Shown here: piece by piece, positions 1 through 6,000 of the stretch
How the letters are laid out: each line of letters opens with the position of its first letter
Numbering within the stretch: the first letter of the stretch is position 1
Assembly (NCBI GenBank): GCA_038874215.1
Contig: JAVZCV010000036.1
Location: forward strand, 1 to 6,413
DNA from: Candidatus Micrarchaeia archaeon
GTDB lineage: Archaea; Micrarchaeota; Micrarchaeia; Burarchaeales; JAVZCV01
Length of the DNA: 6,413 bases
Reading direction: 5' to 3'
Program-made: the position numbers

Positions 1-3000
1 GATAACTGAGTTTTTAGACTCTTCCTCTAATTCCTTTAACACTTGATGGACATCGGATATTGTGAAATGGGATGAGATTGAAAAAATGTCCGTATCCTTT
101 TCTATAACCAAACCGGAGAGGAGACGTTCATACGTGCTGCCTGCCTTGGTAAGGCCTTTTAGGATTTTGATGGTGCCATCTACCGTATCTGCAATTTTAT
201 CTGCGCATTTCAGACCCTCGCATGTAGATGCCATAGTAATGTTTATGTCGCCGTCTTTTTTATCAAAAGAAGAAACGATGAAGGTTATATTAAAATCAGG
301 GGTGTCATTCTGTGGTATGCTACGGCCGTTTATGAAATAGAAAAGCATGCCGTTTTCGTTTGATTTTGCTCGCAATCGCTTGAAGTCTGAATTTTCAAGG
401 ATTGATTTTTTATTGCCGTCAGACACATCAAGGATGTTTTTTATGTTGGTTGGCGCTTCTTTTTCAGTCACAAAAAGCACGGAATCGTCTTTTATAAATA
501 CTAATGAAAAAACAGTAGGAGTATCATAAGTAGCTTTAAGGCTGTATGTATGGATGGTGTGGGGCCCGTGGGCAATTTCGGTTAATTTGACATTGTTGGC
601 TGTCGTATAGGTGAAAAAAGCCTCTTTGCTTATGCCGCCTTCAATAAAAATTGCAAAGTAATTGAAGGCACCGATTTGCTGTAAGAAGGTAGAAGGGGCT
701 ATGAAATTGTCGCTTGAAGGAGCAGAGACGGTTTTTGGAACATCAGTATTTATTTCTCCGAAAAAGACCAGTCTGGAGACATTGCTCGCAGAAACAAAAG
801 AAATGTTTCTGCTAATCTCATTTAGGATCTCATCAACACTCCTGTTTGTTGTATTCTTTATGTAATCTTGAATGTCTTTGTCATTAAGCATTTTTTGTGT
901 GTTTATTTGAAGTAGGATGGTAGCATTTTCTGGCACAATGGCAAGATAGGATTTCTGCTGGGGTGCAAAGAGGGATTGGAGAAAACCGAAAACAACGAAC
1001 AGAAACAAGCCAAGCAGTAGTACGACGACTAAACCGATAAAAAGCGCCTTTTTGTTATCGCCTGCCAAAAAAGCAGATAATTTGTCCTTTACTTCTTGGA
1101 ATGGGCTTTTACTTTCCTGTGCTTCTGTTTGCATAACGGATACGGGCTTATCGCCAAAAGCCCCGCCAGTCCATTTAGGACCGAAATCCGCTTTTCCCTC
1201 CTCAACTTTACTTTCTTCAAACATGGGTTTTTCAGCCGTCTGAGTATAACCATATCCGAGAGGCATCTGCTCTTCTTTTTTTTCTTCTCTTTTCCACCAT
1301 AGATCCCCAGCTCCGATGGCTTCATCCCGTATGCCTGATTCTTTTTCTCCTTCGTGTGAAGGAGTCGGTTCAGGAGCAGGAATGACTCTCGCTTTTTCTC
1401 TTTCCGATAGCGCTATTCGTATCCCTTCATTAACTTCGTCCTTTGGCCAACCCTTATCAAGTAGCGCTTTTCTTATTTCTTCATCCGAATAACCAAGATC
1501 AAGGCATTTTCTTACATAATCCAACAATATTTCGCTTACCATATCTCCACCCAAAAATCTATATTGATATGAAATTCACACCCCCATTTTCTAAATCCAA
1601 TATTGCTGCCCGCCCCCTGCTTGCAGAGCCGACTTTTACGATAATCGTATCGCCAAGCATCGCTTTTCCCTCGTGCTCGTGGATATGCCCGCACACGTTC
1701 ATGTATGGTTTCTTTTTTTCTATTATTTCCCTGATGGCAGTTGAGCCTGCATTTCCTTTTGGCGTCATGTCAAAGTAGCCTTTTGGTGGTGCATGAGTAA
1801 AGAGCACTGTTTTGCTGTCTATTTCAAGCCCTTCGAGGTCTGCCAGAATTTCCTCTTCTTTTTTCTCGCTCGGGGTTCCAAAAGGCGTCGGTCCGCTTCC
1901 CCCGTAGCCAACAAAGTTAAACTGCCCGAAATCAACCCTCTTTTTATGTAGGCTTACGCCCCTCTCGTCAAGCATATCAACAACCTGTGGAGGATCACAA
2001 TTTCCGTGTATGGCGAGGAGGTTTGGAACGGCGTCCAGTATCTTCATGACATAGGATATGGGCGTGCGTGTTATGAAATCCCCAATAATTACGATGAGGT
2101 CTGTATCCACCCTACGAAGCCCTTCTATTAGCGCCTCGTCTCCATGAAGGTCTGATAAAACAAAAATCTCCAACCGTTCCACCTCTCACAAACCTATGAA
2201 ATTCCTGTTTCCCCTGTCAAACAATTTTTTTTCCCTCCTTCCGCTATCGTGAATTTTAACAACTTCGCCCACGAAGATAGTATGGTCGCCCGTTCCTATG
2301 CTGGCTACGACCTTGCATTCCATGTTGGCCATGCATTCTTTTATGAGCGGGGGTTTAACGCAATCAGCCTTCATTGGCGTTAGCTTTGAGAATTTGTCCG
2401 TGTCTCTGCCGCTCGTCGTACCACAGAAGAGCGCTTCCTCAACCATATTCTCGGAGGGTATGCCAAGCACGAACTCTCTCGTCTCACTTATGGATTTGTG
2501 GCTGTATCTCGTGTTCCCGACACATATTGCCACCATGAAAGGATTGAATGAGGCGGGCATCGCCCACGCAAGTGTTATTATGTTGGCTTTGCCTTCTTTG
2601 TTTACGCTACTCACAAGAACAACCTGCGCTGGATAAAGCCAGTGGTACGGTTTTTCGGCGTAGTTGTATTCAAAGTCGGTTTCAGACATGCTCTCCCTTT
2701 ATGCCCAACAGTATAAGTTTTTTTTCCAAATCTTCTTTAAGTTTTTCGGCTATGAAGTGCTTTGTGTATGCGTCTCCTTTTGCTGCGATTGATATCTTCG
2801 CTGATAGGAGACGCGCAATTTTTCCGCGCACTTTCTTCGGGGACATGCTTATGTATGGATGCTTAAATATTATTCCGTGTTTAGGTGGCTTTGTGTGTTT
2901 TCTCAGATGCTTGAAAAGCGCTTTCTCGGCTCCCATAACCTGAATTCTGCTCGCCGACATTCGTGCGAGTTTTTCTATGCTGCCTGCCTTGGCGATGAGC

Positions 3001-6000
3001 TCCGCTGTAATAGCAGGGCCTACTATGTAAGATGTGTTGGGGGCAACATCTGATGCAAGCTTCTCCTCGTATTCGGAAAGTTTCTTTCTAATTTCGTAGA
3101 GGGATAGGATGAGTTTTGCGAGCTCTTTCATCTGCTCTATATCATCTGGCTCAAATTTAGCGCCGAGGCTCTTAGATGCGCTATTTGCTATCTCATGCGC
3201 TTTTTTTGAACCAACAACTTTTGCGAGTTCTTCTTCATCTATTGAATCCCTGTTTATCGCAAGAACGAGCTGTGGAAACTTCTCGCCCTCTGCCTTCAAT
3301 TCGGGGAAATAGAGGCCGTACCATTCTCGCAACCTTGTGCTGAGCAGGTTTATCGTTTTATCAAGCTCTGAGACTGCGCCGACTGTATGTATCAGAAGCC
3401 TGTCCCTCTCGCCAAGAGCTACTGAAACGGCTTCGCGAGTTCTTCTCAAAATCTCGTCTCGGTCCATTCACCCCACTCCATAAAGCGAAAAACGCCCAAC
3501 CAGTATATTTTGATAGAGTATTAAAATAATTTCTTGTTAGCTGAGCACATCTTATGAACTCTGGTATATCTCAATTGTTCCGTTTCTGTTTCTTATGAAA
3601 ATGTTGCGAAGCGTGTTATTGAGTGTATAGCCGTATTCGGTGCCGTTTTGCAGGTATGCGAAATTGGTGGGTGAAACTGTGATGTTTTTTGTGAGAATTG
3701 GCAAAGATATATCGGATTGGTTTTCTTCATAGTAAATATCAACCGAGCCAGACAGCGTGTTTATTACGAGCGTGTATGTCATGAAACCTTCTGCGCGTGA
3801 TGGGATGGTGAAGTTACGCATATAGCCGTCTCCCGCGCGCACGGCATTGTCTATTTCTTCCGCAACCTGAAAGCCCAATTCCTCGGCTATGCCTTTTGTC
3901 TGCATGCGCGCATCCCGCATTGCATCGCTTGTAAAGAGTGCTAACAAAACCACAAAAGCAAGCACAACAACGCCAAATATCACTAGGTATTCAACGGCAC
4001 TCTGAGCTCTATCCATCAAACCACTATCCAAAAGGAGGATAGACTACTACACAGCGAGGCGTAGAGGCTCCGCATGTGCCCGCATCGTCCATTGCTTCTA
4101 TTGTAAGGTGGTAGGTGCCGCTCTTGCTGAATCTTTCTGCATAAGTGCTATCAGCCCATTTTGTAGGGACTAATGTAAGAGCTACAACGTCGCTCTTACC
4201 CGAGGGTGTGAGCACTCTTATTACCACCTCTCTCCCGCTTGTTATTGATGAGCCTCCGCTCGCCTCCTGTCCTATTATTATTTTCTCCGTATTCTGCGGT
4301 ACTGAAATTAGAAGATTCATTTTTGCTGGCGGGCCCATAGCGCCGACTATATCTATCGCGTTCTTTATCCTTTTTGCCGTGTTTTCTGCTTGCGCTATCG
4401 CTATTTGCTGTGAGGAATTGCTCACTTGTAGATAAACCAAAAAGATGACAGGTAGTATTACGGCAACGGCAAACGCTATCGTTATCAGGAGTTCGGTGCT
4501 GACCTGTGCTTTTACCATACAATCCCAATGGTTATCGTTCCGTATAATATTAACCTTTTGCAGTCCAGATTTCGTTAAGCGCGGATTGCATTGCGTATAT
4601 GGTATAAAGTGTGAGAGGGGGTATTGCAAAAATAACCAATAACGCCCGTGTGTCAAGGCCGTTAAAGCCGCTGTCAATTGAGAGGTGGTCTATCTCGTTT
4701 AGCGTTTTCCAAACCACAAAAAGGTTTAATATGGGGATTATAAATACGAGCGTGCGGAGGAGGGGGTTGATATCAAGCGATGCATACTCTGAAATTTCTT
4801 TATTTATTTTATAATACCAGAATATAGCGTAGAGCCCAAAGGTTGAGATGATAAAGGCAATAACCCTCATTGGGTCAATCGGCTCTCCCACACAAACCCC
4901 ATGTATTCAAGGAGCGTTGTATTTTATATAATTTTGTTTATCATAATTGAAACATGATAACTGCGATAGTATTAATTGAAGCGGAGGTTGGTGCGGCAAT
5001 AGATGTCGCAGAGAAGGTTGCAGCATTACCAGAAGTGCGAGAAGCGTACACTGTTGCAGGAAATTACGATGTGGTGGCAATAGTATGCGTTAAGGAATTT
5101 GAGGAAACGAGCCGAGTAGTGGTTGGGAAGATATCAAACATACCGGGAGTGAAGAAAACAACGACGCTTTTTGCTTTTGAATGCTTCTCCAGATATGACG
5201 TTGAGAGGATGTGGGGCGTAGGATTTGAGGAGAAGATAAACCAAAAAACACCCTCGCAATAGTGGATGCTTGCAGAAACCGGATTAGAGGGGTTCGATTC
5301 CCTTCCCCAGCTTTAAACTTGAAAAGACGTCGTCTGGGCTGGGGTGGCAGAGTGGCTATGCGTCCGGCTGCAGAACAAAATTTTAGTGGGGGGCGTCATA
5401 TTGGATTTAATAGATATAGTAGAGGAGAAAAAAGGGTGGTTGGCGCTTGTTATTCCTGCACTTATATATTTGTCTTTCTACAACAGGAATGATCCATTAA
5501 TAATAACAACTTTGTTCTCATACGTAGTAGGGATTGCGTTTTTAACCATAGAGTTAGAGAAAATAAAGAAGGAGATAAGCAGAAATAAGGATAGATTGAA
5601 GGATGATATTCGCGTTTTGCAGTTTGTATTTTCTAAGAAATCAGTTCTTGCTTCAGGTATGTTGTTGCTAATATGTTGCCTCGTAACTTTATGGTATCTA
5701 TACCAGCGTATTTATGAATTTTGGGCTTACGCGTTTTTTATATCTCTTATTTTGGCATTTGTGTATGCGGTGATTATGGCAGTTGTTAAAGTTGGTGTTC
5801 GGAATATTAAGAAGATAGTAGATAATTCTAATAATAATCAATAGTTGCCGATTAGTAGAGCTTCGGCTTTTTGAAGAAGTTTTCTTTTTTGTTTAATGAA
5901 GACGCTGGTGGTGTGGATTTCGCTTTCTATCCGCTTTATGTCTGCAAGCAGATTGGCAGGTTTTGTCCCGCTTCTACGATTAATTACATTTGCGGGTGTT

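Follow-up and report, generated by a model that had tools for sequence, protein, structure and literature searches.

Nop5 without its fibrillarin-binding N-terminal domain across Micrarchaeota

How does the methyltransferase fibrillarin reach a box C/D particle whose scaffold protein, Nop5, is devoid of the domain that holds it elsewhere? To our knowledge, every box C/D particle studied, archaeal or eukaryotic, secures the methyltransferase through the N-terminal domain (NTD) of Nop5, Nop56 or Nop58, and this tether underlies the models in which the enzyme swings over to its target. The window analysed here is a whole contig of 6,413 bases from a Micrarchaeota genome (1.13 Mb, 38 contigs, 91% complete), and its nop5 gene encodes a protein without an NTD. 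No report of such a Nop5 in Micrarchaeota was found in a literature search. A whole phylum that has the enzyme, the kink-turn protein and predicted canonical guides but not the tether is a natural test of the purpose of the tether. If fibrillarin is recruited without the NTD, the minimal enzyme has to be revised; otherwise some further protein does the job.

The nop5 gene and its frame

The features of the locus are as follows (positions in the window; a C number elsewhere in the text denotes another contig).

1559..2182, reverse strand: calcineurin-type metallophosphoesterase, 207 aa (Pfam Metallophos_2, Metallophos_3, Metallophos)
2186..2689, reverse strand: flavin-reductase-like gene (Pfam Flavin_Reduct, E 1e-36)
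2682..3467, reverse strand: nop5, a 261-aa maximal ORF with coiled-coil and C-terminal Nop domain, without the N-terminal fibrillarin-binding domain
3468..3551, reverse strand: spacer 5' of nop5, 84 nt, with three nop5-frame stops, of which the final one (TGA, 3470-3468) abuts the ATG
3552..4031, reverse strand: upstream 159-aa ORF, membrane-anchored and pilin-like, hydrophobic helix at residues 16-34 (Kyte-Doolittle 3.14)
4024..4677, reverse strand: 217-aa ORF paired with the 159-aa ORF, one hydrophobic helix at residues 63-81

An earlier survey of the genome had described a 261-aa frame, and direct reading of the sequence bore this out: with a TGA immediately 5' of the ATG the frame cannot be extended, and the start at 2685 given by the survey merely omits the stop codon. 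The in-frame stops of the spacer separate nop5 from the 159-aa ORF, which happens to share its frame. A TATA-like A/T-rich box, TTTTAATA, is present in the spacer at about 3526-3519, and a purine-rich run directly precedes the ATG; we infer a putative promoter and ribosome site from these elements. A bacterial-type scan of the spacer gave no match, as expected in an archaeon.

The protein starts at the junction of NTD and coiled coil, with only 0-9 residues ahead of the core. The sole Pfam family found is Nop (PF01798), which spans residues 32-251 (E 5.7e-59). The matches listed in the survey were all recovered: residues 10-253 align with 126-374 of 376 in Pyrococcus furiosus Nop5 (3nvk_A), residues 7-251 with 122-371 of 388 in Sulfolobus solfataricus Nop5 (3id5_A), and the NCBIfam model aNOP56 (NF011121) is matched over profile positions 127-373 of 417. 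The latter match scores 306 bits, under the cut-off of 452 bits, a shortfall that fits the missing third of the profile. The coiled coil is present (residues 10-113 align with P. furiosus 126-228), and the alignment to the coiled coil and C-terminal domain of solved Nop5 structures leaves no extra module. An AlphaFold model based on an alignment with 48 relatives (pLDDT 92.9) has 14 helices, the long ones at residues 21-53 and 107-141, and zero strands. Because the NTD has an alpha/beta fold, this all-helical model counts for its absence. The kink-turn/L7Ae-binding stretch of the Nop domain, G179-L188 (GAEKALFKHL), is invariant among the 48 relatives, and the host genome has one Nop gene.

Absence of the NTD across the sampled phylum

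The short form is not peculiar to the host. Among 61 Micrarchaeota genomes, sampled evenly and including G000 and the unpublished G029, 60 were found to carry a single Nop-domain gene each, with open frames of 236-537 aa; these 60 have the short form, in several cases on contigs 0.5-1 Mb long. Of 49 Micrarchaeota loci, 35 have no more than 46 residues ahead of the core when the count starts at the earliest possible start codon. The pre-core sequence is longer in the remaining 14, where it is Arg/Gly-rich and of low complexity in 11 and looks like an over-extended frame in 3, and none matched the NTD profiles. Among the best 120 database homologues the stretch ahead of the core likewise never reaches 90 residues (its maximum is 66 and its median 3), and three NTD profiles gave 0 matches among them. 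The survey had reported the same zero among 120 homologues, and its smaller phylum samples (n = 51, 16 and 31) gave the same picture as the present 61 genomes and 49 loci.

The searches for a diverged, stand-alone NTD gene, which the survey had considered conceivable, were done with sensitive profiles. Pfam NOP5NT gave 0 matches in the host genome, but none of 14 control genomes passes its cut-off either, so that this model is insensitive, as the survey had noted. Our first NTD profile detected 31/31 loci of other archaea, 3 of these outside the training set, and 85/101 independent cluster representatives with at least 55 non-RG residues before the core. Broader profiles, which include 10 mini-NTDs, detected 31/31 control loci and 97 representatives. 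With the broader set, no NTD was found among 13,416 six-frame ORFs of the host genome (best E 0.076), and across the 61 genomes there was no convincing NTD-profile match, none being better than E 0.005 per genome. Two 195-aa frames, the only ones opened among the weak matches, turned out to be a lipoprotein.

The 159-aa ORF directly upstream was also considered as a detached NTD. It belongs to no Pfam or NCBIfam family, scores at most 3 bits with the NTD profiles, carries the hydrophobic helix, has paralogues at C1:133194-133787 and C27:3280-3666, and has no counterpart at 49 other Micrarchaeota nop5 loci; we rejected it. Its partner, the 217-aa ORF, has paralogues at C1:132590-133243, C27:2537-3286 and C10:34383-35246, and the pair occurs twice more in the genome. 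Across the phylum no small ORF is conserved upstream of nop5, in agreement with the survey. The NTD is thus missing from the host Nop5 and across the sampled phylum.

Fibrillarin, guide RNAs and possible routes of recruitment

As previously claimed, fibrillarin has been retained and is encoded by a gene of its own, of ordinary length. The host protein (C25:6127-6777, 217 aa) matches P. furiosus fibrillarin from end to end (E 4e-70) and has no extra module. A fibrillarin match (E <= 0.001) was obtained in all 61 genomes and exceeded the Pfam cut-off in 60; the gene stands alone in every case, with main frames of 217-308 aa. Across an alignment of 26 Micrarchaeota sequences, the SAM-binding motifs and the candidate catalytic residues K, D, K and H do not vary. 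L7Ae is encoded in the host genome at C1:92972-93253.

The gene order is different from that in other archaea. Fibrillarin adjoins nop5 in 1/49 Micrarchaeota loci versus 29/31 loci elsewhere, and in the host the two genes are on different contigs; the canonical nop5-fibrillarin pair is broken in Micrarchaeota, which is a new observation. The slot held by fibrillarin in other archaea, directly downstream of nop5, is usually taken by the metallophosphoesterase (40/49 Micrarchaeota loci versus 0/31 loci of other archaea). In the window the flavin-reductase-like gene, which is outside this conserved gene pair of the relatives, lies between the two and shares 8 bases with the end of nop5.

A strict C/D-D'-D pattern matched in 53/61 Micrarchaeota genomes, with 111 matches versus 4 for the backward control, and the guide families recur between genera. 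The guides have the full C, D', C', D layout, with spacers inside the 10-14 nt window of the pattern. Elsewhere the pattern matched 6 times in Metallosphaera and 3 times in a Bathyarchaeote, where the control gave 0 matches. The host genome has two predicted dual-guide sRNAs (C38:218-325 and C17:9096-9033), each preceded by a TATA-like box. The D' guide of the C38 sRNA has a 10-nt exact complement in the host's own 23S rRNA, where the fifth-nucleotide rule points to the A-loop uridine before GUUC, a site that is ribose-methylated elsewhere. We know of no rRNA methylation map for any Micrarchaeote. Judged by these patterns, canonical dual-guide C/D sRNAs persist in Micrarchaeota, also a new observation.

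Our preferred reading, to which we give a probability of roughly 45%, is that the NTD of a genuine, working Nop5 was lost in the ancestor of Micrarchaeota, and that the particle still guides rRNA ribose methylation, with fibrillarin joining it directly and transiently. Of the parts that remain, the coiled coil would dimerise and set how far apart the two guide halves lie, and L7Ae, seated on the C/D and C'/D' kink-turns, would be bound by the Nop domain. Because canonical sRNAs persist, guided methylation probably still works with fibrillarin recruited without an NTD, and the retention of L7Ae and a catalytically intact fibrillarin together with these sRNAs argues that rRNA ribose methylation is kept. 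Fibrillarin, whose gene has left the nop5 operon, would no longer be pre-bound to Nop5. In the assembled particle it would most likely touch the guide-target duplex together with either the coiled coil or the Nop domain of Nop5. Arg/Gly-rich Nop5 tails may help recruitment in about half of the lineages; since they are missing from the host protein and from 19/49 loci, they are not a general answer.

According to an excerpt of PMC7962484, fibrillarin enters the RNP via the Nop5 NTD in the archaea studied, the role that the survey had given to this domain, and an excerpt of PMC5558902 states that fibrillarin alone has no activity on rRNA in Pyrococcus. As far as these excerpts go, direct recruitment without an NTD would therefore be without precedent. 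The inactivity of the lone enzyme speaks for a separately encoded adaptor, maybe unrelated to the NTD, that binds fibrillarin and docks on the Nop5 coiled coil or L7Ae, an explanation that we consider possible but rather doubtful. Conservation of an aromatic residue also favours it and counts against direct recruitment: Y102 of P. furiosus fibrillarin, which packs on the NTD in solved complexes, corresponds to F93 in the host and is kept as Tyr or Phe in 25/26 Micrarchaeota fibrillarins. This would fit a surviving partner surface, yet the residue lies in a strand and may be structural. The metallophosphoesterase, in spite of its place in the usual fibrillarin slot, was detected with this query in only 26/61 genomes; with no match in the other 35, among them every one of the 19 genomes of family f5, it is excluded as an adaptor for the whole phylum. 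No small ORF is conserved beside fibrillarin (best cluster 8/30 loci) or, as noted, upstream of nop5, and an ESM Atlas feature search with a control NTD, with Nop-domain clusters left out, gave nothing above 0.78.

The sole concrete adaptor candidate, encoded at C3:33453-33980 in G000, is 166 aa long and belongs to no known family, and replacement of the Nop5-NTD/fibrillarin heterodimer by such a phylum-specific, non-homologous adaptor seems quite improbable. The protein occurs in 59/61 phylum genomes. A scan of 185,579 species genomes, seeded with a pattern, gave 86 matches; the 80 listed all belong to Micrarchaeota or to MAGs that carry no label beyond 'archaeon' or 'ainarchaeum'. Its gene is head to head with nop5 in 14/49 and 49/80 loci, but adjoins nop5 in only 3/59 genomes of the even sample. 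The modelled structure is a generic ferredoxin-like fold (best Z 8.2, ribosomal protein S6), and with no Nop5 among the matches listed by Foldseek or VIA we rejected the protein as NTD-like.

It is unlikely that the activities have separated, with Nop5, L7Ae and sRNAs acting without fibrillarin, for example as chaperones that fold rRNA through base pairing, and fibrillarin methylating RNA alone or with another partner. The uncoupled genes would agree with such a division, as would the combination of coiled coil and Nop domain without NTD, which is the architecture of Prp31 (2ozb, 3siu, E about 4e-21). On the other hand, the guides are canonical throughout and at least one is aimed at the A-loop uridine, fibrillarin is conserved as in other archaea and kept in every one of these reduced genomes, and the Pyrococcus enzyme is inactive alone. 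The survey's conclusion that fibrillarin must be recruited otherwise stands in that the NTD is absent and fibrillarin is kept; 'must' overstates the case slightly, since there is a third possibility, a fibrillarin that has ceased to work in the particle, against which the conserved canonical guides argue. That nop5 was truncated by assembly, mis-called or split, with the NTD in unassembled sequence, is effectively refuted despite the short contig and incomplete genome, given that the gene is mid-contig with a stop directly ahead of its ATG and its own A/T-rich box, that the short form recurs on long contigs, and that no NTD was found in any of the 61 genomes.

All four components are small and soluble, and parts of PMC8975820, PMC5498576 and PMC8784108 describe several Micrarchaeota now in co-culture. 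The question is thus answerable by reconstitution and methylation mapping.

Comparison with known systems

The coiled-coil and Nop domains align over their full length with those of archaeal Nop5 (aNOP56 NF011121; 3NVK/2NNW of P. furiosus, 3ID5/3PLA of S. solfataricus; E about 1e-61). As in those archaea, the GAEKALFKH stretch is kept and the genome also encodes L7Ae, fibrillarin and predicted C/D sRNAs. The host protein differs in lacking the first 120-125 residues, in scoring 306 bits against the family cut-off of 452 and in the position of its gene away from fibrillarin.

Prp31 of the eukaryotic U4 snRNP (2OZB, 3SIU) has the same plan of coiled coil and Nop domain without a fibrillarin-binding NTD. 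It binds a kink-turn RNP already held by an L7Ae-family protein and recruits no methyltransferase, and archaea have no spliceosome. Prp31 is a much weaker match to the host protein (best chain E 4.2e-21 versus 2.3e-61 for Nop5), which has no Pfam family beyond Nop (PF01798) and whose partners are methylation guides; identification as Prp31 was rejected on the basis of these E values and the single Pfam family.

The NTD can shrink in evolution and still bind fibrillarin, as in Archaeoglobus fulgidus Nop5 (1NT2). Its reduced 71-residue NTD lacks two strands as well as three helices and does not fold unless fibrillarin is present, according to an excerpt of PMC7962484. The host protein goes further, with 0-9 residues before the core and no hit by profiles that include mini-NTDs. 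Nearly identical boundaries are seen in the engineered NTD-less S. solfataricus Nop5 (3icx_A, 255 aa), of which residues 2-238 match host residues 20-251 (E 3.9e-60). It was reportedly crystallised with L7Ae and RNA, and shows that a fragment of this kind folds. Whereas 3icx_A is a laboratory truncation, the host Nop5 is a natural protein of a whole phylum.

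The short Nop5 and its distribution

The survey's finding that Nop5, the scaffold of the box C/D sRNP, is a 261-aa protein lacking the N-terminal fibrillarin-binding domain (NTD) was borne out by a stop codon before the start, by the point at which a profile match begins, by alignments with PDB entries and by an all-helical model. The window is contig C36 in full, part of a 1.13-Mb genome of 38 contigs (91% complete) that is assigned by its named homologues to Micrarchaeota, a DPANN phylum. The gene lies in the window at:

2682-3467, minus strand: nop5, open reading frame of 261 aa

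A TGA abuts the nop5 ATG, and two further stops in the same frame lie inside the 84-nt spacer to the upstream ORF. The gene therefore does not start further upstream, and there is no read-through from that ORF. The sole Pfam family in the protein is the Nop domain (residues 32-251, E 5.7e-59), and the match to NCBIfam model aNOP56 begins at position 127 of the 417-position profile and ends at 373, with 306 bits, below the 452-bit cut-off. Compared with solved structures, residues 10-253 correspond to 126-374 of P. furiosus Nop5 and residues 7-251 to 122-371 of S. solfataricus Nop5. These limits are close to those of the engineered S. solfataricus chain 3icx_A, a laboratory truncation.

An AlphaFold model of the protein, made with 48 relatives (pLDDT 92.9), has 14 helices and no strands. 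The NTD of P. furiosus Nop5 comprises residues 1-123, and the archaeal NTD has the same core fold as that of eukaryotic Nop56, i.e., five strands with helices around them (PMC7962484, in excerpt). A short protein predicted to be all-helical thus stands against a strand-containing domain that fills the first 123 residues in P. furiosus, and the observation of a missing NTD is correct.

The spread of the short form was examined in 61 Micrarchaeota genomes drawn evenly from the phylum, with the present genome and the unpublished genome G029 counted throughout; the conclusions are independent of G029. Exactly one Nop-domain match was found in 60 of the 61 genomes, in open frames of 236-537 aa. At 35 of 49 Micrarchaeota nop5 loci, taken from species genomes, at most 46 residues precede the core of coiled coil and Nop domain. 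The 14 longer frames are Arg/Gly-rich and of low complexity in 11 cases, and the other three resemble frames over-read upstream. In the 120 database proteins most similar to this Nop5, a median of 3 residues (maximum 66) precedes the core.

A library of 1.8 billion proteins clustered at 50% identity was also surveyed through its 150 best-matching representatives: 44 were short without an NTD, 5 carried Arg/Gly-rich arms, and 101 had at least 55 non-RG residues before the core. When ten diverse short representatives were looked up, all three with an organism name were from Micrarchaeota; the other seven carry none, one of them bearing just a protein name. The NTD has genuinely been lost, long ago and across the whole phylum.

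Search for an NTD encoded elsewhere

The Pfam NOP5NT model had no match in this genome, but none of 14 control genomes yields a match above its cut-off either, so the negative result is uninformative. A first profile of our own was made from 28, then 31, NTDs of full-length Nop5 from Bathyarchaeia, Thermoprotei and other archaea. It detected all 31 loci of other archaea with full-length Nop5 (E 1e-22 to 1e-48; three of them outside the training set) and none of the 49 Micrarchaeota nop5 loci, and it called an NTD in 85 of the 101 independent cluster representatives with at least 55 non-RG residues before the core. Broader profiles, built from 91 large and 10 mini NTDs, detected the 31 control loci and 97 representatives.

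With none of these profiles was an NTD found among the 13,416 ORFs obtained by six-frame translation of the genome (best E 0.25 with the first profile, 0.076 with the broader ones) or in the sequence flanking nop5 (50 loci) and fibrillarin (30 loci). The best first-profile match in the genome, a 162-aa frame at C4:42378-42863, covers only 37 profile positions and was rejected. Also rejected were the top five frames of the broader profiles, which were NadA-like, radical-SAM-like, Mut7-C-like and, in two cases, unassigned, as judged by eye only.

When the first profile was run across the 61 genomes, no match was better than E 0.005, and most weak matches fell in frames of 228-1,138 aa. The frames opened were the only size-appropriate pair, two 195-aa frames at loci L114 and L115, which represent a lipoprotein with a coiled coil and a signal peptide with lipobox. 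Weak matches also recurred at corresponding positions in genes beside nop5; of four frames checked, three encode KaiC-type ATPases and one combines a PIN domain with a P-loop NTPase. A feature search of the ESM Atlas with a control NTD, with PF01798 clusters skipped, gave a top score of 0.78 and no lead.

Two proteins were considered individually. One is the 159-aa ORF directly upstream of nop5, which belongs to a repeated pair:

3552-4677 of the window, minus strand: pair of small ORFs with one N-terminal hydrophobic helix each, pilin-like by eye, present in three copies in the genome
C1:132590-133787 and C27:2537-3666: further copies of the pair

This ORF was rejected as a detached NTD on sequence and gene context: residues 16-34 form a strongly hydrophobic helix, the ORF pairs with the next one in an arrangement found at two other genome sites, and none of the other 49 nop5 loci has a relative of it. 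Beyond the pair, the window contains an isolated regulatory domain and an incomplete frame:

4954-5262, plus strand: Lrp/AsnC ligand-binding domain alone, 102 aa, without the DNA-binding part
5838-6413: ORF that runs off the contig end and is broken by a short N run (read as XXXX) at about 6090-6105

The second candidate is encoded elsewhere in this genome (G000):

C3:33453-33980 (2454-2984 in the fetched locus L127): protein of no known family, 166 aa (166-176 aa across relatives), with an invariant GG.L..LYFD.H motif

Of the 61 phylum genomes, 59 encode it. In 185,579 species genomes scanned with a pattern seed, 86 relatives were found, and the 80 of these that were listed all came from Micrarchaeota or from MAGs whose label is no more precise than 'archaeon' or 'ainarchaeum'. 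The gene stands head to head with nop5 at 14 of 49 nop5-centred loci and at 49 of 80 loci centred on the gene itself. In the even phylum sample, the two genes adjoin each other in just 3 of 59 genomes, so the linkage is confined to one sub-lineage. The predicted structure (pLDDT 80.7) has a beta-alpha-beta-beta-alpha-beta domain followed by helices, a ferredoxin-like fold, and it most closely resembles generic proteins of that fold, e.g., ribosomal protein S6 (Z 8.2). Nop5 chains were absent from the listed Foldseek and VIA-align matches. With this modeled fold and no Nop5 among the structural matches listed, the protein is not a diverged NTD, and it was rejected as such.

Fibrillarin, L7Ae and guide RNAs

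Fibrillarin was found in all 61 genomes, in 60 of them above the Pfam cut-off. Counted from its true start it has 216-226 aa (30 loci) and its alignment with P. furiosus fibrillarin extends over the full length, which means that no NTD is fused to it. In 26 aligned Micrarchaeota fibrillarins, the glycine-rich SAM motif is invariant, as are the candidate catalytic Lys, Asp, Lys and His, which we take to be the catalytic tetrad. The only extra in L7Ae is a tail:

C1:92930-93427 (1459-1956 in the fetched locus L122): L7Ae of 165 aa, about 45 of which form a Lys/Glu-rich tail outside the L7Ae domain

C/D guide RNAs were sought with a strict pattern of box C, a 10-14-nt spacer, box D' and box D, using the reversed pattern as a control. 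This gave 111 matches in 53 of the 61 genomes, versus 4 for the reversed pattern. Elsewhere, six matches were found in a Metallosphaera genome, three in a Bathyarchaeote and none in controls. The Micrarchaeota matches form a handful of guide families common to several genera, and most have a recognisable C' box, i.e., the classical dual-guide layout. Strict patterns gave 0-4 matches in the present genome, not above controls and with no true strict match. Two sRNAs, each preceded by a TATA-like box, were found in it only with probes from relatives' guides:

C17:9096-9033, minus strand: dual-guide C/D sRNA, 64 nt, with CCGA as box D'
C38:218-325, plus strand: C/D sRNA with AUGAGGA as box C, CCGA as box D and a 54-nt hairpin between D' and C'

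In both, CCGA replaces CUGA at D or D'. In the C38 sRNA, the changes in box C and box D would be paired, converting the usual U-U contact to G-C. Its D' guide has a 10-nt exact complement in the 23S rRNA of the same genome (chance about 0.018 for a random 13-mer), and by the fifth-nucleotide rule it aims at the A-loop uridine directly 5' of GUUC. This is presumably the equivalent of E. coli U2552, which we take to be methylated in all domains of life. A general scan for guide complements in rRNA showed no enrichment (6 versus 3 and 1 in controls).

Other features of these RNAs were recorded as well. For the D guide of the C38 sRNA, no more than a 9-nt match was found, in the 16S-23S spacer. 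The D guide of the C17 sRNA is a member of a phylum-wide conserved family and has no complement of at least 8 nt in the rRNA operon of this genome. The 16S rRNA gene (C14:7164-9272) has 2,109 bases versus a 1,478-position model, with some 600 bases inserted, probably including at least one intron.

Proposed entry of fibrillarin into the particle

Selection maintains the remaining C/D machinery. In the simplest interpretation, to which we assign a rough probability of 0.45, fibrillarin would join the assembled particle directly, without an NTD. Results with Pyrococcus proteins count against this route, as fibrillarin showed no activity by itself and, paired with Nop5, attaches only to an L7Ae-sRNA complex that has already formed (PMC5558902, in excerpt). 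The same holds for an aromatic fibrillarin residue that in solved complexes packs against the NTD (PMC7962484, in excerpt), since 25 of 26 Micrarchaeota sequences retain Tyr or Phe at the position.

The main rival, which we consider conceivable and rather doubtful, is that an unrelated adaptor protein brings fibrillarin to the particle. The 166-aa protein described above is a candidate for such an adaptor. In gene order, a second protein stands out near nop5:

1559-2182 of the window, minus strand: metallophosphoesterase, with a flavin-reductase-like gene between it and nop5

Fibrillarin lies directly downstream of nop5 at 29 of 31 loci of archaea with full-length Nop5 versus 1 of 49 Micrarchaeota loci, whereas a calcineurin-type metallophosphoesterase lies downstream at 40 of the 49 (loci L003-L054) and at none of the 31. 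It thus occupies the slot that fibrillarin holds in the other archaea. With the query used, the metallophosphoesterase was found in only 26 of the 61 phylum genomes and in none of the 19 of family f5, a family within the phylum. Being undetected in most of the sampled genomes, it was rejected as a general NTD substitute.

Less probable is a separation of the activities of the Nop5 sRNP and of fibrillarin; judging by the conserved fibrillarin with its invariant motifs, the phylum-wide guides and the A-loop match, guided methylation likely persists in Micrarchaeota. No description of an NTD-less Nop5 was found in the full-text literature, a search whose coverage excludes subscription journals and supplementary files.

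Besides lacking the NTD, Nop5 carries Arg/Gly-rich disordered arms at 26 of the 49 Micrarchaeota loci (L007, L028, L029, L044, L045, L048, L052 and others). An N-terminal arm is present on 16 of the 49 proteins and a C-terminal tail on 10, the longest being about 170 and 190 aa, respectively. Neither occurs on 19, and the Nop5 described here has the same bare form. The arms are reminiscent of the RGG domain, which in eukaryotes is found on fibrillarin itself.
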